DNA of 64,000 nucleotides from an uncultured Chloroflexia bacterium (GTDB taxonomy: Bacteria > Chloroflexota > Limnocylindria > Limnocylindrales > CSP1-4), in NCBI GenBank assembly GCA_963778805.1, contig CAVZVT010000005.1, forward strand, positions 293,838 through 357,837. The letters run 5' to 3'. Shown one piece after another: positions 2,332 through 59,962 of this stretch; positions within the stretch are counted from its first letter, which is position 1, and each line of letters starts with the position of its first letter. Made by a program: the position numbers and the translations under genes. The notes beneath the pieces were generated by a model. That model made no database searches. It saw only the letters and a program-made list of their open reading frames with translations, and had not been told where the DNA came from.

Positions 2332-5300
2332 ATGCCGTACAATCGGGACGTGCCCCAGGATCAGCTCGTCGTGCGCGGCGCGCGCGAACACAACCTCAAG
2401 AACGTCGATGTCGCGTTCCCGCGCGACCGGCTCGTGGTCATCACGGGCCTCTCGGGTTCGGGCAAGAGCAGCCTCGCCTTCGACACCATCTACGCCGAAG
2501 GCCAGCGTCGCTACGTCGAGAGCCTGAGCGCCTACGCCCGCCAGTTCCTCGGGCAGATGGAAAAGCCGGATGTCGACCAGATCGACGGACTGTCGCCGGC
2601 GATCTCCATCGACCAGAAGGGCGCCTCGCGGAACCCGCGGTCCACCGTCGGGACCGTCACCGAGATCTACGACCACCTGCGGCTGCTGTTCGCCCGGATC
2701 GGGATCCCGCACTGTCCCAACGGCCACGCGATCGAGCGGCAGAGCGTCCAGCAGATCGTGGACCAGGTCCTCGCCCTGCCGGAAGGGACCCGGCTGCTCG
2801 TGCTCGGCCCGCTCATCAAGGACCGCAAGACCGAGGGCGACCGCGTCTTCGATTCCGCGAGGCGGCAGGGCTTCGTCCGTGTCCGCGTCGACGGGGAGAT
2901 GGTCGACATCGCCGATGCGCCCAAGCTCGACAAGTACAAGCGCCATTCGATCGAGGTCGTGGTCGACCGCTACATCGTTCGCCATGCCGAGGCGCCTGAG
3001 GATTCGAAGCGGGCACCGGACGGCCGACCGATCGACCCCGAGACCGGCGAACCGATCCCGGATCCCGATGCCGGCCGGCTCGCGGACTCCGTGGAGACCG
3101 CCCTCCGACTCGGCGAGGGCGTGGTCCTCATCGCCCCCGCGCCGCGCGATGACGAGGCGCCGGCGTTCGAGGAGCAGCAATACAGCGAAAAGTACAGCTG
3201 CCCGTACGACGGGTTCACCGTCGAGGAACTCGAGCCGCGGACGTTCTCCTTCAACTCGCCGCACGGGGCATGCCCGTCGTGCGCCGGTCTCGGGACCCGG
3301 CTGGAGATCGACGAGGATCTCGTGGTCCCGGATCGATCGAAGAGCCTCCAGACCGGGGCGCTGGTGCCGTGGTCACGCCTCGCCACGGACGCATCGTGGC
3401 GGCTGAAGATCATCGAGGCGATCTGTAACGCCCACGGCTGGGATTTCAAGGCGCCGTTCCGCGACCTCCCCGAGGAGGCCGTCGAGTACATGCTCCGGGC
3501 CGCCAAGAGCGAGAAGGTGGTCGTCCGCTATCGCCACGAGCGAGGCGAGAACACGTACAACGCGACGTTCGAGGGCATCATCACCAACCTCGAGCGGCGG
3601 TACAAGGAAACGGACTCCGAGTTCATCAAGAACGAGCTCGAGCGGTACATGGTCAGCCGCCCATGCCCCACCTGCGGTGGCAAGCGGCTCCGCCCGGAGA
3701 TCCTGGCCGTCACGATCGGCGACCAGAACGTCTGGGACGTGTCGACCCTCTCGATCAAGGAGGCGCTTCGCTGGGCGAGCGGGCTCGGCGAGACGCTCAC
3801 CGAGCGGGAACGGACGATCGCGGTCCAGCTCCTCAAGGAGATCGTGGCGCGGCTCGGGTTCCTGGTGGATGTCGGGCTCGACTATCTGACGATGGATCGG
3901 ACGAGCGTGACGTTGTCCGGCGGGGAGGCCCAGCGGATCCGTCTCGCGACGCAGATCGGGACGACGCTGATGGGCGTCCTGTACATCCTCGACGAGCCCT
4001 CGATCGGTCTGCACCAGCGCGACAACGCGAAGCTCATCGCGACGCTCACGCGCCTGCGGGACCTGGGGAACACGGTCCTCGTCGTCGAGCACGATGAGGA
4101 GACCATCCGGACGGCGGACTGGGTCGTCGATATCGGGCCGGGGGCCGGCGAGCACGGTGGCGAGATCATCGCGAACGGGCCACTCGACGCGGTCCTCGCC
4201 GAGCCGCGTTCGATCACCGGGGCATTCCTGCGAGGGGAGCGGGCCGTGCCGATCCCGGCCAGGCGCCGGCATGGCAACGGCAAGGCACTCGTCGTCCGGG
4301 GGGCCCGCGAGCACAACCTCCAGAACGTGGACCTGCGGGTGCCGCTCGGGACGTTCGTCGCGGTGACGGGCGTGTCGGGGAGCGGCAAGAGCACGCTCGT
4401 GACCGAGGTGCTCTATCGAGCGCTGGCGCGAGAGCTCAACGGATCGCGTGAACCCGTGGGCGCGCACGATTCGCTCGACGGGGCGCAGCACATCGACAAG
4501 ATCATCGAGATCGACCAGAGCCCGATCGGCCGAACGCCGCGCTCCAACCCGGCGACCTACGTGGGGCTGTTCACCCCGATCCGCGAGTTGTTCGCGGGTG
4601 TCCCGGAGTCGCGCGTCCGTGGCTACACGCCGGGTCGGTTCAGCTTCAACGTCAAGGGCGGCCGCTGCGAGCACTGCAAGGGCGACGGGATCCTCAAGAT
4701 CGAGATGCAGTTCCTGCCGGACGTCTACGTCCCGTGCGAGGTCTGCAAGGGCAAGCGCTACAACCGCGAGGCGCTCGAGATCCACTACAAGGGCAAGTCG
4801 ATCGCGGACGTGCTCGAGCTGACCATCGCCGAGGCCCTCGAGTTCTTCGCGGCGGTGCCCAACGTGCGCGCCAAGCTCCAGACGCTCAACGACGTGGGGC
4901 TGGGGTACGTCCACCTCGGCCAGCCGGCGACGACCTTGTCCGGCGGCGAGGCCCAGCGGGTCAAGCTCTCGACCGAGCTGTCGCGGCGCGCGACGGGACG
5001 GACGCTGTACGTGCTCGACGAGCCCACGACCGGGCTCCACTTCGCCGACGTCGAGAAGCTGCTCGAAGTGCTCCACCGGCTCGTCGATGGCGGGAATACC
5101 GTCCTGGTCATCGAGCACAACCTCGATGTCATCAAGACGGCCGACTGGATCGTGGACCTCGGACCGGAAGGTGGCGACCGCGGTGGCCGGATCATCGCGG
5201 AGGGCACGCCGGAGACGGTGGCGGCCACCAAGGGGTCGGCCACGGCGGACTATCTCGACCGCGTCTTGCGCGGCGAGCCGCTCGTGCCGTTGTCCGACGT

Positions 5301-5834: not shown

Positions 5835-6618
5835 TCATGACTGGCGGCACCTCACAGCACGACGATGCCGGATCCACCCGGGTGGCGCCCTGCGCCAAGG
5901 TCGCGCAGGCATCACGCGAGCTTGGATCGGAAAGACATCGCTCGAGCAACGACGCGGCGGATCGGAGGGCGTCTGCGATTTCGACGTGTGTCTGAGACAA
6001 GCAGCAGGACGTGCTCCGCTCCCTCCGTCGCGGGCCTTGAGCGTGATCCGTCGGACTTGCGCCTGAAGGTCGATGAGTCTCGTCTCGGCCTCCACCGGAA
6101 GCCCGTCCATGATCGGCCTCGCTATCGCACCAGCCCGCCGATGCAGGCGTCCCATGCTCGTTGATCGCCGGGGATCCCGTAGTGGGACCTCCATCCGGAA
6201 GGTCAGCTCCGGCATGCGAGCCGCTGCCGGAGTCGATCCAGCAGGGCGATCTGCGCGGCGTCCCGGATCGGGTCCGGACCGGGATATGCTCGGACCCGAA
6301 CATCGAGGCCGACCGCTGAACCGAGCCTCGCGAGCTGGTCGACGCTCGCCGTCGCGAAGGCGGCCCGCTCGATCCGACCTGCCTGCGATCGGCGACAGCC
6401 CGGCCGTCGCCGCCAACGTGGACCTGGGAGCGACCAAGGATCATTCGAGCACCGCGGATCTCGTCCGCCGACTCGTAGCAGATCCGCCCGCGCGAGTCGC
6501 CGACCACGGTCGATCGGTCGCTCTCGGGTCGCCCATCCGTGCAGTGTCGCTCGACCTCACGTATCTGCGGCCAAACCGCGGCTTCGCGCCCAGCGGGACC
6601 CGAGGCCAGGTCGAGCAA
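5835..6618 (-). pseudogene. decayed or frameshifted ORF of unknown function on the minus strand
   Basis: Protein-like reading (high GC3) switches between three minus-strand frames (6618→~6400, ~6400→6230, 6437→5835); no recognisable domain; local GC is lower than surrounding genes. Confidence 0.3.
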
Positions 6619-6704
6619 GTGCGGCCAGGTCGGGTAAGGCGGCTCGGCGACATCGATCCCGACCGTACCCGCGGGCGGCCTCGGCCAGGGGCTAGCATAG
6701 GAAT

Positions 6705-7523
6705 GTGCCGGATATCGACTTCGCCTTTCTCGCGGACGCCGCCGAGACGATCCCGGGGCAGAAGTTCCATGTGCTTGGCGGCGGGATCGCGCGGATCGGC
6801 GGGAAGCGGTTCCCGCTGCGACATCCGCATCTCGCGCTGGTGATCGGCCTCCAGGTCACGGCCCCCGAGACCGAGCGGGAACACGAGGTCCGCTTCGTCC
6901 TGCTCGACCCTGATGGCGCCGAAGTGGCCGGTGCCACGGGGAGCCTCGTCGCGCGGAGCCAGCGCGATGGTCGCGACGCGACGCTGACCTTCTCGATCGA
7001 CCTGTGGAACCTGACCTTCCCGTCGCCAGGCGACTACTCGTTCCGGATCCTCGTCAACGGGTCGGAGCGCAAGCGACTCCCGCTCCTGCTGCTCGCCCCG
7101 CCTGACGATGCGACGGCGCAGGGGGGCAAGTCGGTCACGCGCCCAGCCGATGACTGAGATCACGGGACGATCGACGTCGGCGCGTCGGGGTCGTCGACAT
7201 CGGCATCTCCGGCCGGGCGCACGACCGCGCGTCACGAGCGACCCGTCATCGATGCGCTCGGGCTCGAGGCAGCTCGGCACGGCGACCGACTGCTCGCGGA
7301 AGCGCACGCGATCGGTGCCACCCGGTGGGCGACCTACCTCGAACCGCTGCCGGATCGCCTTCGCGACGACGAGCCCGCCGCTCTTCGCCGAACGGCGATG
7401 CGGGCACGATCCGCCTACGGCCCGAAGGACTCCGTCCGGGATGCGCTGCCGGAGTCGCTCACGGAACCGTTCCTGGACTCGATCGACCGACTGCTGCGGG
7501 AGCTCAATCGAACCAGGGCATGA
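6705..7523 (+). CDS. hypothetical protein; a 150-aa ORF (6705-7157) ends at TGA 7155-7157 and the same frame continues coding-like to 7523
   Basis: A TAGCAT -10-like hexamer lies 15 nt upstream; GC3 stays high in frame after the TGA (…VIDALGLEAARHGDRLLAEAHAIGATRWATYLEPLPDRL…) with no alternative start codon downstream. Confidence 0.4.
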
Positions 7524-7663
7524 GGGCCGGTCGCTAGGCCTTGAAGGCCAGTCGCGGGCCAGAGCGACCCCGAAGGCCGGTCGCTGGCCACAGGGCGACC
7601 CCGAAGGCCGGTCGCTGGCCACAGGGCGACCCCAGAAAGCCACTCGCTGGCCAGCCCGAATCC
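7524..7663. repeat. 31-bp tandem repeat block (4 units, 2 perfect: CCGAAGGCCGGTCGCTGGCCACAGGGCGACC) between convergent gene ends; each unit holds a short inverted repeat
   Basis: Perfect units at 7570-7600 and 7601-7631, degenerate units at 7539-7569 and 7632-7663, and a partial unit at 7524-7538. Confidence 0.7.
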
Positions 7664-7664
7664 T

Positions 7665-9173
7665 CTAGGACGTCGGCGGGGTGGGGCTCGGTGGCGTGAA
7701 CGTCGATGCCTGGGCCATCAGATCGGCGACCTGGGTGCTCGCGGCGTAGGCCGCCTCACCGGCGGTGCCACTGGTCTGGATGGTCATCGTCCCGCCGGCG
7801 CCGTAGTCGATGATGTACGAGTAGAGCGTCGTCCCGACGGGCGTGCCGCTGTCGGCCGTGGTCGATGTCGCCTCGACGAGCGTCGCCTGCAGGCCTGACA
7901 CGGTCGCCTCGGCCGACTGGATCACGTTCCAGTTCGCGGGGTCCGTCGCCGCTGCGACGGCGTCGTCATACGAGGCCACATCCGGCTTCACGGTGATCGC
8001 CGCGTCCGGTGCGCTGCCGTCGGACGGCACGCTGATGGGGTTCGGATCGAAGTACTGGCAGGCGGCGGCGGGCGGCTCGGAGAGCGTGTGCCAGGCCGCC
8101 GGGTAGGCGATGGACGCCAACGGCACGCCACTCGGGCTCTCGATCGCGCAGCTGGACTGCGGCGGAACCGAAGGAAGCGGCGGCAGGGTCGGGGCGGGTG
8201 TCGGCTTGGGCGTGGGTGACGGTGTCGGCTTGGATGTGGGTGCCGGCGTGTCCGAGGGCTTCGGCGTCTCCGACGGCTTCGCGGATTCCCCGGCCGAGGG
8301 CTTCGGCGTCGCGGTCGGCTTGGGCGTGGGTGACGGGGTCGGCTTGGGCGTCGGCGTGGCGCTCGGGATCGGCGGCACGGAAGCCTCGGCCTCCGCCTCG
8401 TCTGCGGCTCGCGGCTTCGTCATCGCCACGATCACCTCGGAGTTCCGGTCACGCAGGACCACGGCGAGCCCACGGCGCTCGATGAAGGCCGCTCCCTGGA
8501 GCGCATCGAGGAACTCGGACTCCTGGGTCATCACATCGTCGGCGCACGTCTGTCGCGTGGTCGCGAGCCGGCTGATCTTCACGATCGTGCCGTTGGTCCC
8601 GTAGACACCGTCGTAGGTGTTGCAGCCGCTCGAGCCGCCGACGTTGGTGATGCCGAAGACGGCGGTCAGCTCGGTGCCGCTGATGGGGATGGTCTGTGAT
8701 CCGGGCGAGGTCGCGAAGGAGTCGACGTTCCATGCACCCAGGAGGGGGTTCGCGGGGGCCGCGTCGAAGACCAGGAGCACCTGTCCGCCGGCTCCGAAGA
8801 TCGTGAGCGTATCGGCTCGGACCCCGAAGAACCGGCTGTCGTGCAGGACGGAGAGGTAGGTCGATTCGAAGGTCATCTCGGCGTCGGCGCAGGCCTTCTG
8901 CGTGGCATGGACCTGGGAGATCAGCAGCGTCCGGCCGCTCGCCCGGGCGATCGCGCCGTAGTCGTTGCAGCCGGCGAACCCGTCGACGCGGTTGCCCGTG
9001 AACTTGGCGTCCGCGTACAGCGCCTCGGGGACGATCTCAAGCGTCCCGCCATTGGCGTACGAACGGAGTACCCAGTTCGTGCCCTCGATCTCGCCGCCGG
9101 ATCCGCCACCGGGCGAACAGGCGACGACGCCGAGGACGAGGCCGATCAGGACCGCGAGTCGCCGGATACGCAT
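7665..9173 (-). CDS. secreted lipoprotein with two tandem META (HslJ-like/DUF306) domains, a Pro/Thr-rich linker and a C-terminal domain
   Basis: Lipobox LVLGVVAC; the motif GCNxY/GxY…T(M/Q)xAC appears twice; the linker [19 protein letters not shown] is encoded by repetitive DNA at 8190-8400. Confidence 0.7.
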
Positions 9174-50647: not shown

Positions 50648-51098
50648 ATGACCGAGAACCACGAAACCCACGACACGTCGTCCAGCGGCACGCCCAAGGC
50701 GAGCGGCGCGACCGCGATCCTCGAGTCGCTCCGCGAGGCGTTCGACGACCTGACCGAGCGCGCCACGCCGGCCGTCCGCGAAGTCTCCGCGCGGGCCGCC
50801 GAGCTCACCGCGATGGCCGCGACCAAGGCGGCCCCGTACGCCCGAAAGGCCGGCGACGTGACGGCCGACGCCAGTGGCAAACTCGCCGACCGGTCGCGTA
50901 CCTGGGCGGCCGAGCTGCGATCGACGATCGATGGCGCGACCACCGATGCGACGGATGCCAGCCGAGGCCACCGCCGACGCGGCCGCCGATGCCGGCGACG
51001 CCGCCTCCGATGCCGCTGACGCGGTCTCCGACGCGGCGGAGCACGTGACCCGGCCCGTCGTCGATCCGTCGCCCGCGCCGGACGCGCCGGCCTCCTGA
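50648..51098 (+). CDS. hypothetical Ala/Asp-rich protein (frameshift near 50950)
   Basis: A 150-aa ORF with an AAGGAG RBS; helical, low-complexity C-terminal ADAAADAGDAASDAADAVSDAAE in the +1 frame. Confidence 0.4.
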
Positions 51099-51141: not shown

Positions 51142-51657
51142 ATGAGCGTCCGTCCGATCGTCCTGCTGGGCGACCCCCGTCTCCGCCTCAAAGGCCTCCC
51201 TGTCGAGAGCTTCGGCAAGTACCTGCACGAGCTGCTCGGCGATCTCGCGCACACGATGCGTGACGCCCCTGGCGTCGGACTGGCGGCACCGCAGCTGGGC
51301 GAGCCGCTCCAGGCCTGCGTGATCGAGGTCGAGAACCACCTCTACGAGCTCGTCAATCCGCAGATCGTGCGCTCGAGCGGCGACGACCGGGACCTCGAAG
51401 GGTGCCTGTCCATCCCGGGCTACGTGGCGTACGTCACGCGTCGCGAGAAGGTGTGGGTGGTCGCCCAGGACCGTCATGGTCAGAAGATCAAGGTCGCCGG
51501 TTCCGGCCTGCTCGGTCGGGCGCTCCAGCACGAACTCGACCACCTCGACGGGAAGCTCTACATCGACTACCTGGACTCGATGGATGAATTGATGGCGGTC
51601 GGGCAGGGCGACGAGGACGACGCCGAGGTCCGCGAGGCGACGAGCGCCCTGGCGTGA
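51142..51657 (+). CDS. def: peptide deformylase
   Basis: Motifs GVGLAAPQ, EGCLS, and HELDH; TATACT lies 9 nt upstream of the ATG. Confidence 0.9.
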   Translation: MSVRPIVLLGDPRLRLKGLPVESFGKYLHELLGDLAHTMRDAPGVGLAAPQLGEPLQACVIEVENHLYELVNPQIVRSSGDDRDLEGCLSIPGYVAYVTRREKVWVVAQDRHGQKIKVAGSGLLGRALQHELDHLDGKLYIDYLDSMDELMAVGQGDEDDAEVREATSALA

Positions 51658-52608
51658 CACGGACCGGTCCGGTCCGGACGGTCTTCATCGGCAGCGGCGG
51701 GTTCGGCCGCGAAAGTCTGCGGCGGCTCGTCGACCATCCGGCGATCGATCTGGTCGGCGTGGTGACCGCGCCCCCTCGACCATCGGGCCGCAAGGCGACC
51801 ACGACCCCCACGGTCATCGGCACGCTGGCGAACGAGCTGCGATGTGCCCGCCGTCCTGACACCGGAGCGTCTCCGCTCGCCGGACTCGATCGATGCGGTC
51901 CTTGCCCTCGCGCCGAGCCTGCTCGTCCTCGCCGACTACGGCCGGATGGTGCCGATGGCGCTCCTGGACCTGCCCCACCGGGCGCTCAACCTCCATCCGT
52001 CGTTGCTGCCCAGGCATCGCGGTGCCACCCCGATCCCGGCGACCATCCTCGCGGGCGATCGCGAGACCGGCGTGACCCTCATGTGCATGGACGACGGCCT
52101 GGACACCGGACCGATCGTCGCGCAGGTGCGGGTCGCCCTCGACGGCACGGAGACGACGCCGGTCCTCGAGGATCGATTGGAGGTGATGGCGGCGGATCTG
52201 CTGGCATCACGACTCGGGCCGTGGGTCCGTGGCGAGCTACCGGCCGAGCCGCAACCGGCCGTCGGCGCGACGATGACCCGGCCGCTTCGACGCGAGGACG
52301 GTCGGCTGGATCCACGCGCGTCCACCACCGAACTCGCGCGACAGGTCCGGGCCTACCAGCCCTGGCCCGGTTCGTTCATCGATACGGCTGTCGGCAGGAT
52401 CATCGTGTGGGCGGCCGACGACTCGGGTGCCCCGAACGACGGGGAGGACCCCACGCCGGGTCGCATCGGTGCCCTCGGGATGTCCGCAGCGGATGGTGCC
52501 TGCCTCGCGTTCCGTGAGGTCCAGCCGGCCGGCGGCCAACGGATGTCATGGGACGCGTATGTGCGCGGTCATCCGGCCGTCGTCGGGAGTCAGGTCGTCG
52601 TCGAGTGA
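51654..52608 (+). CDS. fmt: methionyl-tRNA formyltransferase (frameshift near 51840)
   Basis: N-terminal VFIGSGGFG and the formyl-transferase core (…NLHPSLLPRHRGATPI…) in two frames; the GTG overlaps the def stop. Confidence 0.85.
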
Positions 52609-52632: not shown

Positions 52633-53829
52633 GTGACCACCGCAGACGTGACCATCGACGACCGCCCGGGTATCTCGGGTCTGCCACCCGAGGACGTCGC
52701 GGCCTGGGTCGCCTCGCAGGGACAGCCCGCCTACCGCGCGCGGCAGGTCCAGCAGGCCGTCTGGGACGGTGGGGGCTCGACCGATCCAGCGACGATCGCG
52801 ACGCTCCCGATCGCCCTCCGGACGGCCCTGGGCGACGCGTTCCGCTTCGATACCGTCGCGGATTCGGAGGTGCGGGTCACCGACGGCGGGCTCACCGAGA
52901 AGGCTCTGCATCGGCTGGCCGATGGCGCGCTGGTCGAATCCGTGCTCATGCACTATCCGGCACGATCGGGTCAGCGGGAACGCCACACGCTGTGCATCTC
53001 CAGCCAGGCCGGTTGCGCGGTGGGTTGTCCGTTCTGTGCGACCGGCGAGCTCGGCTACACCCGCGACCTCTCCACGGCCGAGATCGTCGATCAGGTCCGA
53101 CATGCCGCACGTCGACTCGCGGCGGACGGCAAGCGGCTGACGAACATCGTGTACATGGGGATGGGCGAGCCATTGCTCAACCTCGACCGGGTCCTGGCGT
53201 CGGTGGAGGCCCTCAACGACCCGGACCGGTTCGGTCTTGGGGCGCGGCACATCACGGTCTCCACGTCGGGGGTCGTGCCCGGCATCCGACGGCTCACCGC
53301 GCTGGGACCGCAGTTCACCCTGGCGATCTCGCTCCACGCCGCCCGCGATGCGTTGCGCGACGTCCTCGTCCCGTTGAACCGCCGCTGGCCGGTCGCGGAG
53401 GTGGTGGATGCCGCCCGCGCCCACGGTCGATCGACCGGACGTCGGATCAGCTACGAGGTGACCATGATCGGCGGCGTGAATGACACGGCCCTCGATGCCG
53501 AGGCGATGGCGTCCCTGCTCCGGGGCGATCACGCGCATGTGAACCTCATCCCGATGAACCCCGTCGCCCACACCCCATGGACGGCCAGCCCGATGCCCGT
53601 GATCGAGGCGTTCGCCGCGACGCTCCGTGAGGCCGGCATCGGCACGACGATCCGACGCAACCGCGGCCAGGAGATCGGTGCGGCGTGTGGTCAGCTGGCG
53701 GCCGAACGAAGTGGTGAGCCGACCGCGCCCGCGGTCGCCCGCCGGCGCGAGCTGCTGGTCGTGGCGAGCACGGCGGCGCTCCGCGGCGAGCGAAGCCACG
53801 AGCCGGCACCGGCCGGGGTGGGGGAGTAG
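52633..53829 (+). CDS. rlmN: 23S rRNA/tRNA m2A methyltransferase (radical SAM)
   Basis: CxxxCxxC-like cluster SSQAGCAVGCPFCATG. Confidence 0.9.
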   Translation: MTTADVTIDDRPGISGLPPEDVAAWVASQGQPAYRARQVQQAVWDGGGSTDPATIATLPIALRTALGDAFRFDTVADSEVRVTDGGLTEKALHRLADGALVESVLMHYPARSGQRERHTLCISSQAGCAVGCPFCATGELGYTRDLSTAEIVDQVRHAARRLAADGKRLTNIVYMGMGEPLLNLDRVLASVEALNDPDRFGLGARHITVSTSGVVPGIRRLTALGPQFTLAISLHAARDALRDVLVPLNRRWPVAEVVDAARAHGRSTGRRISYEVTMIGGVNDTALDAEAMASLLRGDHAHVNLIPMNPVAHTPWTASPMPVIEAFAATLREAGIGTTIRRNRGQEIGAACGQLAAERSGEPTAPAVARRRELLVVASTAALRGERSHEPAPAGVGE

Positions 53830-53831
53830 CC

Positions 53832-54827
53832 GTGGGGACCGGCCGGGCCCGCGTCGCCGCGAGCATCCTTGACGCCGACCTCTCGAACCTGGCGCACGCG
53901 ATCCGACGCGTCCAGAACGCGGGCACGGACCGGGTCCATCTCGATGTCATGGACGGCCACTTCGTCCCGAACCTCACGTTCGGCGCCAGGACGATCAAGC
54001 ACCTCCGCCGACGGACGACGCTCCCGTTCGATGCCCATCTGATGATCAGCGAGCCCGGTCGCTATCTCGAGGAGTACCTCGACGCGGGCTGCGACTCCAT
54101 CACGATCCACGTCGAGATCGACGAGCCGATCGAGCCGACGCTCCGCGCGATCCGCGCGGCTGGTCGAGCCGCGGGCCTGTGTCTCAAGCCCGGGACACCG
54201 CTCTCGGCCCTCGAGCCCTACGAGGACCTGATCGACATCGTGATGATCATGACCGTGGAGCCCGGGTTCGGCGGCCAGTCCTTCATGAAGGAGGTCGCCC
54301 GCGACAAGATCCTCGCCGCGCGTCACTACCTGCGCCACAAGGTCCATGGCGGCGAGGTCCATGTCGATGGCGGGATCAACCGCGAGACGGCCGAATTCGC
54401 CGGTGGTCTCGGCGTCGATGTCCTGGTGGTCGGCTCGGCCTTGTTCATCAAGGGCCACGACATGGGTCGGGAGATCCGGCTGATCCGTGCGCTGGCCGAC
54501 GAGGGCTACCAGTTCACGTTGAACGGAGGCGAGCCGCCGATCCCTCGCGACCGGATGGTCCGCTTCACCTCGCTGCCGAAGCATCTCGCCCGGCCTCTGA
54601 TGGACGAGATCGAGGCGGGCGGTGTCCCGGTGATCATGCTTCGCGGCAACGGGGTCATGAACCCGGATGGGGTTCGCGACTACGACCTGCTGGTCCCGGC
54701 GACCGTCGAAGGCATCGTCGAAGCGCGACACGCCGCGGCCCGCGACCAGGCGCTGGTCGAGGCGGAGACCTGGCGCGTCGCGTTCATCGCCGAACATGGG
54801 GTGATCCCGCCGCCCACGATCGGATGA
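53832..54827 (+). CDS. rpe: ribulose-phosphate 3-epimerase with a ~105-aa C-terminal extension of unknown function
   Basis: The Rpe core (…[16 protein letters not shown]…HLM…) ends near aa ~225 (…VLVVGSALF); the frame continues for 105 aa ([49 protein letters not shown]…) with no stop. Confidence 0.8.
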
Positions 54828-55270
54828 GAGCCCTCCTCCAGCGCGTGTCGAGCGGATCCGTCCGGATCGACGGCGAGGTGGTCGGCACCATCGACGCCGG
54901 CCTGGTGATCCTGCTCGGCGTCGGCCCGGACGATGACGAGCAGGTCGCCGACGAGCTCGCCCAGAAGGCCGTCGGTCTGCGGATCTTCCGCGACGAGGAC
55001 GGCCGGACCAACCGGTCGTTGCTGGAGACAGGGGGCGCGGCCCTGGTCGTCTCGCAGTTCACGCTGTACGCCGACACGCGGCGAGGCCGACGGCCAGGGT
55101 TCACGGGTGCGGCCGCGCCGGAGCTGGCGGATCGGCTCTACGAGCGGTTCGTCTCTACGATCCGGTCTGCGGGCGTGACCGTGGCGACCGGACGGTTCGG
55201 AGCGGAGATGTCGGTCGAGCTCGTCAACGACGGCCCGTTCACGATCTGGCTCGACAGCGCCGAGCGGTGA
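54823..55270 (+). CDS. dtd: D-aminoacyl-tRNA deacylase
   Basis: [13 protein letters not shown]…SQFTLYAD… (Dtd fold). Confidence 0.85.
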
Positions 55271-55493: not shown

Positions 55494-55627
55494 GCGAGGT
55501 CCTCAGGTAGGTGATCAGGGGGACTCGAGCCGGGACCGGCCCGAACGGAAGCGGTAGGATACCACAAGGCCTCCGACGCTCTGCTCGGACACCGCCCGAC
55601 CCGCCCTGCGAGGAGGACGACGCCCGC

Positions 55628-56051
55628 GTGTCATCCGAGAAGACCCCCGGCCGTTCGCTCGTGACCCGGCGCGCCATCGTCGACGTCGTGCGAGCGGCGA
55701 CCCTTGGGTCCTACGGCGTCGCCGGCGTCGCTGGCGGTCCGGTCGGACGGCTGCTGGCCCGGTTCGATCTCGCTCACCCAGGGATCACGGTCCGCATCGC
55801 CGGTGGCGTCGACATCGACCTGGACCTGGTGGTCGCGCTCGGCGTCCCCGTCGCTGAAGTGGCCCGCCAGGTGGACTCGGCCGTTCGGTATGCGCTTCGA
55901 CACACGCTCGGCGTGGACGTCCGCGAGCTCCACATCCACATCGATGGCGTGCGGGTCCAACCCGGCGGCGCCCCACCGATCGTCGTGGAGACCGATCCTG
56001 GCGCAGATCCGGCTTCGCGACCTCGCCGAGAGCGGGACGGACGTGGCCTGA
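55628..56051 (+). CDS. Asp23/Gls24 family envelope stress protein (3' end probably frameshifted; reads in-frame into the next gene)
   Basis: GTG start with a GAGGAGG RBS; Asp23 fold (…IVDVVRAATLGSYGVAGV…); a TGATG overlap motif at 56049-56053 suggests the native stop lies in the -1 frame. Confidence 0.6.
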
Positions 56052-57737
56052 TGCCCCGCCGATCGTGCGACGGCCCCGGTCTGCTGGAGGCGTTCCGTGC
56101 GGCGACGGCCAATCTCGAGGCCCACGTCGACGAGATCAACAACCTCAATGTCTATCCGGTCCCTGACGGCGACACCGGTTCGAACATGGCCGCGACCGTC
56201 CGAGCGGCGCTCGAGGAGGCGGAAGGCGTCGCCGGTGGATCCGTCGAGCGGGTGGCGGCCGCGATCAGTTTCGGAGCGCTCATGGGGGCCCGCGGCAACT
56301 CGGGCGTGATCACGAGCCAGATCTTTCGCGGGATGGCCGATGGACTTGCCGGCAAGCGTCGCTTCAACGGGCTGGACCTCGCGCACGCGCTCGCCGAGGG
56401 CGCACGGACGGCCTACGCGGCGGTCGCCAAGCCCGTCGAAGGCACGATCCTGACCGTCATCCGCGAGTCAGCCGATGCCGCCGTCGCGGCCGCTGCCCAC
56501 AGCGAGGACATCGAGACCGTCCTGGCCGCGACCGTGGATGCGGCCGAGAAGTCCGTGGCACGGACCCCGACCCTGCTGGCGATCCTGCGCGAGGCGGGTG
56601 TCGTGGACTCGGGTGGCCAGGGTCTGTATCGCCTCTTCCAGGGGGCGCTGCTGCATCTCGTCGGGCAGACGCTCCCGACCGAGGCCCACGACCGGACCCC
56701 CAGCGGACCCAAGCCGTCCACGCTGGTCGCCCATGCCGACGAAGGGTTCGGCTACGAGACGATGTTCCTGTTGCAGGCCACCGGTGCGACCCCGCTCGAT
56801 GTCGATGCCATCCGCCGGCATCTCGAGATCATCGGCGAGTCGGTCCTCGTGGCGGGTGACGGTCGCGCCCTCAAGATCCACGTGCACAACGAGCAGCCCG
56901 ACCTCGTGATCGGGTATGGCCTCACGCAGGGCACGTTGTCGCGGATCAGCGTCGAGAACCTGGACAACCAGGCGCGCGACGTCCGGGAGGCCAAGGCGGC
57001 CGAGTTCACGACGGAGTCGGGAGGGCATGGCGCCAGTGCGCACGCGAAGGCCAGCGCGGCCGGGGGCGTTGGCATCACGCTCCCGCTCGGCGTCGTGGCG
57101 GTCGTCTCCGGCGACGGTCTGGCCGCGATCTTCCACGACTTCGGTGTCGCGGCGGTCGTCCAGGGCGGTCAGACGGCCAACCCGAGCACGGGCGAGCTCC
57201 TCGATGCCATCGGGCGGGTCGATGCCCGCGAGATCCTCATCCTCCCCAACAACCCGAATGTGATCCTTGCGGCCCGTCAGGTCGCTTCGATGACCGACCG
57301 TCCGGTCGTCGTCGTCCCGACGCGCAATGCCGCCGAAGGCTTCGCGGCCCTCCTGGCCCTCGACCCGACCCTCGATGCGTCCGCGAACGCCGAGCCGATG
57401 ACCGATGCGGCGCCGGGCGGTCCAGACGATCGTGGTCACCGAGGCGGTGCGCGATGCGACGATCGGTGGCCACAAGGTCAGACGCGGTCAGACGATCGCG
57501 CTGGACCCCGACGATGGGCTGGTGGCGGTCGACGCGGATCGCGAGACCGCGGTGGTGGCCGCGGTCAAGACCCTCAAGCCCGGCTTCGAGTTGATCACCG
57601 TGTTCTATGGCGATGGAGCGGACCTGGTGGAGGCAGAGGGGATGGTCCGTCGGATCGGCGCGATGCATCCGGGGATGGACGTCGAGGTTCGGCATGGTGG
57701 CCAGCCCTACTACCGATATCTGATCGCCGCGGAATAG
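56051..57737 (+). CDS. DAK2 domain protein (YloV/FakA-like fatty acid kinase subunit); frameshift near 57400
   Basis: INNLNVYPVPDGDTGSNM DAK2 motif; the C-terminal 110 aa lie in another frame. Confidence 0.75.
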
Positions 57738-57738
57738 C

Positions 57739-59962
57739 GTGCCCAGCACCACCGGGACGCCCAACAAGGCCGGTGCGGCGCGCAAGGCGGCCGCGGTCCC
57801 GCCGCCGCCCACGGACCCCGTGGAACTCCTCTCGACGCCGCTGGCGAGATCCGGTCTGACCGCCGCGGCCCAGCTTCGTCGAACGGGCATGCGCCTCGGC
57901 ATCTACGACGTCCGCGACCTGTTGTTCCATCTGCCGCGTCGATACGACGACTTGCGCGAGATGCTCCGACTGGGCGACCTGATCCACGCCGAGCTCGGGA
58001 CCGTGGTGTCCGCTCGCGCGGTGGTCGGGGACGTCCGGGTCGAGCCGACGTTCCGTCGCCGCGTCCAGCGGACCATCGCCACGTTCGAGGATGACAGCGG
58101 GTCCATCCAGGCGACCTGGTTCGGGCGCCGCTTCATCGAGCGCCGACTCCACGTCGGGAGCGAGGTCGTCGTCTCGGGTCGCCTGAAGCGGTTCGGGCGC
58201 GAGCTCACCCTCGACAACCCGGAGTTCCAGACGATCGAGGACGGCGATCCCGAGGTGTTGCACGCGGGTCGCATCGTCCCGGTCTACCGGCTCACCGGCG
58301 GGTTGACGGCGGCTCGCCTGCGGCTGGCGATCCGCGAGGCGCTCGACCGAGCCGGGTCCGGCTACCCGGAGTACCTGCCTGGCTCGATCATCGGCGACGA
58401 AGGTCTGACGGGCATCGTGCCGGCGCTCGAAGAGGCGCACTACCCGGCGAGCTTCGACGGTCGCGACGCGGCGCTCCGGCGGCTGGCCTTCGACGAACTG
58501 CTCGCGCTCCAGCTCGGCATGGTCGCCCGGCGTCGGCAACGAGCCCGGATGGCCGCACCGCAGATCGAGGTCCCGGACGCCGCCGACGCCCGGATCCGAG
58601 CGACCCTGACCGCCGCGCTGTCGGTCCGTGTCGGCCGGCCGGTGACGCTCACCGAAGACCAGGGGATCGCCGTGGAGCGGATCCGCGGCGACCTCGCGCG
58701 AACGTCGCCGATGCTGCGGCTCCTCCAGGGTGATGTCGGTTCGGGCAAGACCGCGGTCGCCGCGTACGCCCTCGCCGCGGTGGCCGGGCAGGGCCTCCAG
58801 GGCGCGCTGCTCGCCCCGACGGACCTCCTGGCGCGACAACATGTCGAGACCGTCGGGGCGCTCCTGGCGGACCTCGGGGTCGGCGGTCACGCTCCTCACG
58901 GGATCGCTGAAGGCCGAGGGCCGGGCGAAGGCGCTGGGTGACATCGCCACGGGTCAGGCGACCGTCGTGGTGGGAACGCACGCGCTGATCCAGGAGTCCG
59001 TCGTCTTTCGCGACCTCGGCCTGGTCGTGATCGACGAGCAGCACCGGTTCGGGGTCGGGCAGCGGGACGCCCTCGAGGCGAAGGCCGGTGGTCGTCCGCC
59101 GCATGTCCTGCTGATGACCGCGACACCCATCCCGCGCACGCTCGGCCAGGTCCTCTATGCCGACCTCGACGTCACCGATCTCCGGACGCCACCGGCGGGA
59201 CGCGTGCCGATCCGGACGGGGATCCGTCGACCGGATGAACTGGCCGGGACGTGGCAGAAGGTCCGCGACGAGGCGGCCGAAGGCCATCCGACGTTCGTCG
59301 TGGTGCCGCTCATCGACGATTCGGGCGAGGAGGGGACCGGTGCCGTCGCCGCGGAGAGCGAGGCGGTCCGCCTGCGGGCCTTGCTGGCACCACTCCGCGT
59401 CGGTCTGGTCCACGGCCGGATGAAGGCGACCGATCGCGACGCCGAGATGACGCGGTTCCGCGACGGCGAGCTCGATGTGCTCGTCGGGACGACCGTCGTG
59501 GAGGTGGGGGTCGACGTCCCGGCGGCCACGATGATGATCATCGAGGGCGCGGATCGATTCGGTCTGGCGCAGCTCCACCAGTTGCGCGGCCGTGTGGGTC
59601 GCGGGACGGTCGAGTCCTACTGCGTGCTCGTGTCGGACTCGATCGACGAGGTGGCCCAGGCGCGACTCAAGGCCGTGGCGGAGCTGCGGGATGGGTTCGA
59701 CCTTGCCGAACGCGACTTCGAGCTGCGACGCGAAGGCGACGTCCTCGGGCTCGTCCAGAGCGGGCTGCCCCAACTCCGGGTCGCATCGCTCGCCCGCGAG
59801 GATCACCGAGCGCTGGCCGTCCGGGCGCGTGGCCATGCCGAGGCGCTGCTGGACGAACGGGGTCGGTGGCACGATGGCGGATCGGCGCTCGTCGCCGAAC
59901 TGGCCCATGGCTGGCTTCGACGGGTCGCGAGCGGTGATGCGGACGCCGATGTCGACGATTGA
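57739..59962 (+). CDS. recG: ATP-dependent DNA helicase RecG (frameshift near 58880)
   Basis: Wedge domain, Walker A GDVGSGKT, DEQH box (VIDEQHRFG), and the C-terminal helicase domain across two frames. Confidence 0.9.

Follow-up and report, generated by a model that had tools for sequence, protein, structure and literature searches.

A stretch of 64,000 nucleotides from an uncultured Chloroflexia bacterium (contig CAVZVT010000005.1 of assembly GCA_963778805.1, positions 293,838 to 357,837), hereafter the window, carries a gene for ribulose-phosphate 3-epimerase (Rpe) whose product runs on for about 100 residues beyond the catalytic barrel. As read from its sequence, the gene encodes one polypeptide, in which an Rpe barrel leads through a conserved, seemingly rigid linker into a compact domain some 80 residues long. 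That this fusion is genuine and conserved we regard as practically certain. From the searches described below, the domain seems confined to the Rpe fusion and to Limnocylindria-type Chloroflexota. Few housekeeping enzymes are as uniform as Rpe, and here a whole lineage of class rank, made up of abundant and uncultivated Chloroflexota of soil and freshwater, bears an extra folded domain on it. The parts of the gene are as follows.

53832 to 54827, + strand: complete coding sequence of the extended ribulose-phosphate 3-epimerase, 331 residues and a stop codon, from the list of open reading frames
53853 to 54485, + strand: Rpe (beta/alpha)8 barrel, residues 8-218, from PF00834, TIGR01163, alignment to 2FLI and 1H1Y, and Foldseek
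54462 to 54521, + strand: last barrel helix, alpha8, residues 211-230, from the full-length AlphaFold2 model and per-column conservation
54522 to 54554, + strand: linker, residues 231-241, with an almost invariant N-x-G-x-P-P-I-P-R-D, from the alignments; predicted local distance difference test score (pLDDT) about 77 in the full-length model
54555 to 54797, + strand: C-terminal orphan domain, residues 242-322, from the tail-only and full-length AlphaFold2 models; no family match
54798 to 54824, + strand: variable proline-rich C-terminal end, residues 323-331 (GVIPPPTIG), of low pLDDT and differing in length and sequence between subfamilies

An in-frame extension conserved among relatives

An earlier note on this DNA had observed that the reading frame runs past the Rpe core without a stop, and a single open reading frame, which begins with a GTG start codon and continues to residue 331, does account for both core and tail. 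The note put the end of the core at the motif FIKGHD, about residue 225, and counted a tail of about 105 residues. The extension is real, but FIKGHD ends at residue 210. Because the barrel helix alpha8 (residues 211-230) follows that motif, and because solved Rpe chains align as far as query residue 227, the true extension begins not at 210 but at about 231, and comprises residues 231 to 331, about 100 in all. A public protein of 331 amino acids (P0121) is 100% identical to the product of the window gene. The open frame by itself is weak proof that the tail is coding, since the window is 69.5% G+C, at which 105 codons free of stops have a chance of about 0.125, and since an antisense open reading frame of 368 amino acids (53691-54797, - strand) spans almost the entire rpe gene. 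The antisense frame, like other long open frames in several frames nearby, is typical of DNA of about 70% G+C and is no evidence of a gene. What takes the tail beyond chance is its conservation among relatives.

Rpe proteins with the same tail, for which the note had suggested looking, are numerous. Among the matches listed in a search with the full protein were at least 120 clusters of 323-356 amino acids, most of exactly 331, with 76-100% identity and 89-100% coverage of the query; where these clusters are named at all, they are named ribulose-phosphate 3-epimerase. When two divergent members served as queries, a second subfamily came up, with proteins of about 352 amino acids. Overall, more than 200 protein clusters share the tail, with lengths from 311 to 378 and mostly 331 or about 352, and the length of exactly 331 is common to more than 100 clusters drawn from short-read and long-read assemblies alike. 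The roughly 300 tail-bearing sequences form two closely knit subfamilies, and in the most divergent member (P0314, 311 amino acids) the long helix of the tail domain is missing its distal half. The members of about 352 amino acids (P0251, P0345-P0424, and locus L083 at 6001-7065) carry an N-terminal extension of 12-15 residues, a distinct hairpin (FRSGPLDLE..DExRDWD) and a proline-rich end of the form MPxPPFVPAPLPPxP.

At the DNA level, the tail is encoded at 296 loci in a set of genomes with one representative per species. The best 80 of these 296 are all titled Chloroflexota, Chloroflexia, Limnocylindria/Limnocylindrales or, in a few cases, other Chloroflexota labels. One apparent match outside Chloroflexota stands under the label Vicinamibacteria. 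Another locus (L083) is labelled Candidatus Sulfomarinibacteraceae; it has the synteny priA-def-fmt-rlmN-rpe-dtd-Asp23-Dak2, of Limnocylindria type, and because of this shared gene order the label is suspect and probably reflects a binning or labelling problem rather than a domain outside Chloroflexota.

At each of 82 loci, the reading frame passes from the end of the core into the tail without a stop, and a single ungapped alignment covers residue 195 or earlier to residue 300 or later. Sixty ungapped comparisons gave differences of 0.18, 0.19 and 0.43 at the first, second and third codon positions in the tail, and of 0.14, 0.09 and 0.40 in the core. The G+C content of the tail by codon position, 0.74, 0.45 and 0.87, resembles that of the core. 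The bias of differences toward the third position, with codon composition like that of the core, therefore indicates that the tail is translated in this frame and under purifying selection, which is less strict than on the catalytic core.

The note had also entertained the possibility that an adjacent small gene had become fused to rpe through a lost stop or a frameshift. Such an artefact, or a chance open frame in G+C-rich DNA, would draw some support from the frame breaks in two neighbouring genes of the window, fmt (at about 51846) and fakA (at about 57410), and from the chance of a stop-free tail given above. Against it stand the in-frame junction at every one of the 82 loci, none of which has a stop after the core, the recurrence of exactly 331 residues whatever the sequencing method, the bias of divergence toward third positions, the confidently predicted fold of the tail, and the lack of any free-standing tail homolog among 1.84 billion representative proteins. 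These results refute an artefact, whose chance we consider negligible. The other reading in the note, that Rpe is truly fused to a small domain, is borne out by the clusters, the in-frame junctions, the conservation of the junction and the confident fold.

A search with the tail alone found 176 proteins, all of 200 amino acids or fewer, a ceiling that is probably in part a length limit of the search, and many of these start at internal methionines. Taking them for separate small genes was rejected on the DNA of two loci (L001 and L002) and on the full-length search, by which they are truncated or frameshifted gene calls.

The Rpe barrel, the junction and the fold of the tail

By every criterion that could be applied except domain architecture, the protein is a member of the Rpe family. 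Pfam model PF00834 (Ribul_P_3_epim) matches residues 8-205 with 211.8 bits against a cutoff of 21.1, and the NCBIfam equivalog model TIGR01163 (rpe) matches residues 8-218 with 219.6 bits against a cutoff of 212.6. The query aligns to the solved structures 2FLI (8.5e-52), 1H1Y, 3OVP, 1RPX, 1TQJ and 7B1W, and residues 1-230 share 35-41% identity with solved Rpe structures where the two align. In Foldseek, the full-length AlphaFold2 model matches 2FLI, 1RPX, 3OVP and 7B1W at E values of about 1e-21 over 216-229 aligned columns. The template modeling scores (TM-scores) against solved Rpe are 0.85-0.91 when normalized to the target but only about 0.60 when normalized to the query, and the tail therefore has no counterpart in any solved Rpe. 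Residues H36, D38, H69 and D179 align with the corresponding residues of 2FLI, H34, D36, H67 and D176 in Streptococcus pyogenes numbering, which we take to be the metal-binding and acid/base residues of Rpe; we accordingly assign the query residues to metal binding and acid/base catalysis, following earlier work with the S. pyogenes and human enzymes. Every one of the 73 family members in the full-length alignment (A3) has H36, D38 and H69, and D179 is conserved to at least 90%. By sequence, then, the barrel is that of a normal and presumably active enzyme of EC 5.1.3.1, the class that interconverts ribulose 5-phosphate and xylulose 5-phosphate.

The protein shares with canonical bacterial, plant and human Rpe the (beta/alpha)8 barrel, the His/Asp/His/Asp set, the matches to family models and a gene position in the ancient priA-def-fmt-...-rpe cluster. 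It differs in length, at 331 amino acids against about 210-250 for the usual single-domain enzyme and 220-247 for all 14 solved sequences of the family. These align only to query residues up to 227, and none of them matches residues 231-331. It differs also in that alpha8 and the segment following it are unusually conserved in the query family. Around the junction, R213, E214, R216, L217, D223, E224, G225, G233, P238 and R239 are invariant, while Q227, N231, P235, P236 and D240 are nearly so. The mean frequency of the most common residue is 0.85 over residues 223-241, against 0.86 in the core and 0.67 over residues 231-322, the linker and domain together.

An AlphaFold2 model of the tail only, built on a 64-sequence alignment of tails (A1), has a pLDDT of 86.3, with 81 residues at 90 or higher. 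The elements of the tail are a strand (242-248), a helix (250-262), two further strands (268-276 and 282-289) and a helix of 33 residues (290-322). The full-length model, built on alignment A3, has a pLDDT of 89.3 and a predicted TM-score of 0.72; it reproduces the same tail elements and places alpha8 at 211-230, followed by the 11-residue linker. A predicted TM-score this low beside such a pLDDT would fit an uncertain placement of the tail against the barrel in a modeled monomer. On these models, the tail has a small alpha/beta fold of two layers, most aptly called ferredoxin-like but for the missing last strand.

Conserved positions are spread through the domain (F245, L248, P249, A253, E261, G264, P266, R271, D279, R282, D285, L287, P289, A290 and E293) and continue as a stripe along the long helix (R299/H300, R304, A311, W314 and R315). 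One face of the strands (L248, L270/F, Y/W284, L286 and V288) was assigned to packing on both helices. The open face of the sheet (V243, F245, V267, R271, D283 and D285) is conserved to the same degree as the packed face. The hairpin between the second and third strands divides the family, reading LRGxGxxNPDG, invariant, in the 331-residue subfamily and FRSGPLDLExxDE in the 352-residue subfamily.

None of the searches placed this domain in a described family. The last 109 residues alone matched nothing in Pfam or NCBIfam, and the 64 tail sequences gave only scattered, single-member noise against Pfam at E values up to 1. A profile made from alignment A1 found only 107 matches at E values of 0.001 or below among the representative proteins. 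Those inspected are fragments or frame-scrambled translations of rpe-tail-dtd, together with two repeat proteins of low complexity that only just reach the threshold; the ten longest contain pieces of PF00834, of the downstream Tyr_Deacylase, of both, or nothing recognizable. Among these matches was no credible free-standing copy of the tail, and no fusion of it to any other domain. The best sequence-profile match in the PDB is the KH domain of Nova-1, with an E value of 0.09. The structure search advised in the note was run with the tail in Foldseek and gave generic fold matches only, the best being oligomer-forming alpha/beta modules, namely the ring-building motif of PrgK/EscJ and CutA. The tail is 7-13% identical to the ring-building motif of type III secretion inner-ring proteins (PrgK, EscJ and MxiJ), a helix-strand-strand-helix-strand wedge that builds homo-oligomeric rings, and differs from it in the order of secondary structure elements; those proteins, unlike the tail, have a periplasmic context. 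The likeness is no evidence of common descent. We found no literature on the C-terminal extension of Rpe or on this domain, including for Limnocylindria. Proteins with the tail are already public under the plain name of Rpe, and no described family takes in the appended domain. Pfam and NCBIfam have no entry for the tail, which has no demonstrable homolog outside the fusion; it is a candidate for a new domain family and a clean marker of its lineage.

Possible roles of the appended domain

Taken as a whole, the protein is best explained, if still tentatively, as an active-type Rpe barrel with a fused, conserved, non-catalytic interface domain. That the tail serves as an interface or assembly module, with a role in quaternary assembly or stabilization, is our best guess and a somewhat less assured one. 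In such an arrangement the domain would be non-catalytic, and its open sheet face and helix stripe (including E293) would pack on alpha8 and the linker, on the underside of the barrel or on a neighboring subunit, and so might set or alter the way in which Rpe subunits assemble, or how stable the enzyme is. The open face is expected to be buried on something, since the three-stranded sheet is covered on one side only and the open face is conserved; likewise the long helix should lean on something, since 33 residues exceed the need of a sheet of 8-residue strands and one stripe of the helix is conserved. The linker, conserved like the active site, would not be a flexible tether. The conserved open face, helix stripe and linker together therefore suggest a domain docked on alpha8, the linker, the barrel underside or another subunit, and conserved hydrophobic and charged residues on both strand faces and along the whole of the 33-residue helix fit an interface. 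The oligomer-forming nature of the best fold matches and the modest predicted TM-score of the full-length model count on the same side. Rpe is normally a dimer or hexamer, with which solved Rpe entries of 6 and 12 chains agree, and this is why a part in assembly or stabilization is favored. Three points weigh on the other side. The contacts of the tail with the barrel or a subunit are deduced from conservation and topology, none being directly seen; R271 and R282 on neighboring strands, with the R239-D240 pair, would fit a site for an anion or phosphate ligand as well; and in P0314 the long helix is reduced to its proximal half, the distal half being thus inessential to the role of the domain.

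The main rival is an allosteric sensor, a small ferredoxin-like, ACT-like or PII-like ligand-binding domain that would tune Rpe to a metabolite. The order strand-helix-strand-strand-helix is that of a ferredoxin-like fold minus its last strand, a ligand site could be formed by R271, D279, R282, D283, D285, E293, R239 and D240, and the invariant R271 and near-invariant R282, together with the acidic cluster, would be fitting for a phosphorylated effector. Against this, the 64 tails gave no ACT or PII match in Pfam at E values up to 1 (nor did the first member match these in NCBIfam), the models lack the fourth strand of the four-stranded ferredoxin-like sheet, and the hairpin sequence differs between the subfamilies, which is unexpected of a shared ligand pocket. 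We also know of no allosteric regulation of a bacterial Rpe. A sensor seems to us unlikely, and we give about the same low weight to a broader proposal, an undescribed regulatory or assembly domain, acting in metabolite sensing or in a lineage-specific higher-order complex or metabolon, which would subject a central pentose-phosphate enzyme to a control known from no other Rpe. Such a domain would have originated at the base of the class Limnocylindria, either de novo or by divergence past the point of recognition. A shade less probable than these is a docking domain for a partner such as transketolase, ribose-5-phosphate isomerase or a product of the translation operon (def, fmt, rlmN or dtd). 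The conserved order priA-x-def-fmt-rlmN-rpe-dtd, in which rpe and dtd overlap by 4 nucleotides at 59 of 82 loci, speaks for it, as do domain surfaces conserved beyond the needs of the fold itself. Yet the synteny is not specific to the tail, a similar operon occurring in bacteria with a tail-less Rpe (Bacillus subtilis, for example); L083 keeps the tail even though a PAP2 gene separates its rpe from dtd; and no partner was identified. Least probable of these roles, and very improbable, is a KH-like RNA-binding module that would link a moonlighting Rpe to the adjacent translation genes. Nova-1 KH is the best PDB profile match, and KH domains do appear in the lists of fold matches, but an E value of 0.09 is not significant, the IGKGG loop of Nova faces a sequence of the LVEARHA type with no G-x-x-G, the topology is unlike either KH type, and no Pfam KH match was obtained with the 64 tails.

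Other barrel enzymes with an added domain offer partial parallels in architecture. The DAH7P synthase of Thermotoga maritima (1RZM) likewise joins a phosphate-binding TIM barrel to a small ferredoxin-like domain, of about 80-100 residues, which confers allosteric control on the enzyme; it ranks 28th in the Foldseek list for the tail, with an E value of 1.4, and shows no significant match in sequence or fold. Archaeal fusions of Hps to RraA or Phi (NF005442 and NF041755) similarly combine a phosphate-binding barrel with an extra alpha/beta domain, and their models touch the barrel part of the query weakly. The added domains of the Hps fusions, too, show no significant likeness to the tail in sequence or fold. 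In contrast to 1RZM and the Hps fusions, the extra domain of the query is C-terminal and lacks the fourth ferredoxin-like strand. Should the tail alter the oligomeric state or regulation of Rpe, such control would be without precedent for this enzyme. The accretion of a domain on a housekeeping enzyme is in itself not very surprising and opens no long-standing question; the finding would be weightier if the domain proved regulatory.

Neighboring genes and frame breaks

Three further features flank or overlap the ends of rpe.

52633 to 53829, + strand: rlmN-like radical SAM gene, the direct upstream neighbor; start uncertain, with homology to relatives from 52804
53820 to 53826, + strand: Shine-Dalgarno-like GGGGGAG, 5 nucleotides before the GTG start and abutting the rlmN stop, read from the sequence
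54824 to 55270, + strand: dtd (D-aminoacyl-tRNA deacylase, 148 amino acids), the downstream neighbor, whose ATG overlaps the rpe stop

The rlmN-like gene ends in TAG at 53827-53829. As the note had stated, the start of dtd overlaps the stop of rpe, the TGA at 54825-54827 and the ATG at 54824-54826 sharing the sequence ATGA. The gene order in the window is priA, a gene of 157-159 amino acids, def, fmt, rlmN, rpe with its tail, dtd, then L28 on the other strand, Asp23, Dak2/FakA and recG, and it is common to relatives. The rlmN gene precedes rpe on the same strand at 80 of 82 loci; dtd follows it on the same strand at 78, with the ATGA overlap of 4 nucleotides at the 59 already mentioned. This neighborhood does not explain the tail, because Bacillus subtilis has rpe in a similar priA-def-fmt-...-rpe cluster with an Rpe that lacks it.

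The remark in the note that frameshifts are common in this assembly holds for two neighbors, fmt and fakA, each split across frames, and rpe is unaffected. The methionyl-tRNA formyltransferase gene fmt (window 51654-52608) is split near 51846: a relative's Fmt aligns in frame 3 over its residues 6-64 and in frame 1 over its residues 63-270, which probably reflects an indel introduced in assembly, or else a pseudogene. At 55511-57859, Asp23 and Dak2/FakA lie in the same frame inside one open reading frame of 782 amino acids. FakA shifts near 57410 from frame 2 (residues 1-452) to frame 3 (residues 454-560), and the long frame ends after this shift in a garbled C-terminus rich in arginine and glycine. 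This too is probably an indel.

About 10 of the 82 loci have frame breaks in rpe itself, at different positions inside the core and never at the junction. In L001 and L002, the break falls inside the barrel, near residue 75 and residue 157 respectively, and the stretch of barrel beyond it shares the frame of the tail. All of the roughly 10 broken loci come from metagenome-assembled genomes with the designation MFD, whose contig naming suggests long-read assemblies; the indel-bearing MFD loci include L001, L002, L006, L015, L030, L034, L038, L044 and L077. Indels that split rpe in many long-read metagenome-assembled genomes thus give rise to spurious hypothetical proteins of 75-200 amino acids that are really tail fragments. 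Databases also hold frame-scrambled rpe-dtd chimeras of 250-640 amino acids.

Other irregularities concern single genes of the cluster. In L083, a molybdopterin oxidoreductase gene (Ald_Xan_dh_C/MoCoBD, 2391-4688) is inserted between fmt and rlmN, and the PAP2 phosphatase gene that parts rpe from dtd lies at 7082-8377, with the tail kept. The gene of 157-159 amino acids between priA and def (about 50648-50950 in the window, 404-883 in L001 and 158-631 in L002) is conserved and has no Pfam match, and only the first 106 or so residues of the window copy align in one frame.
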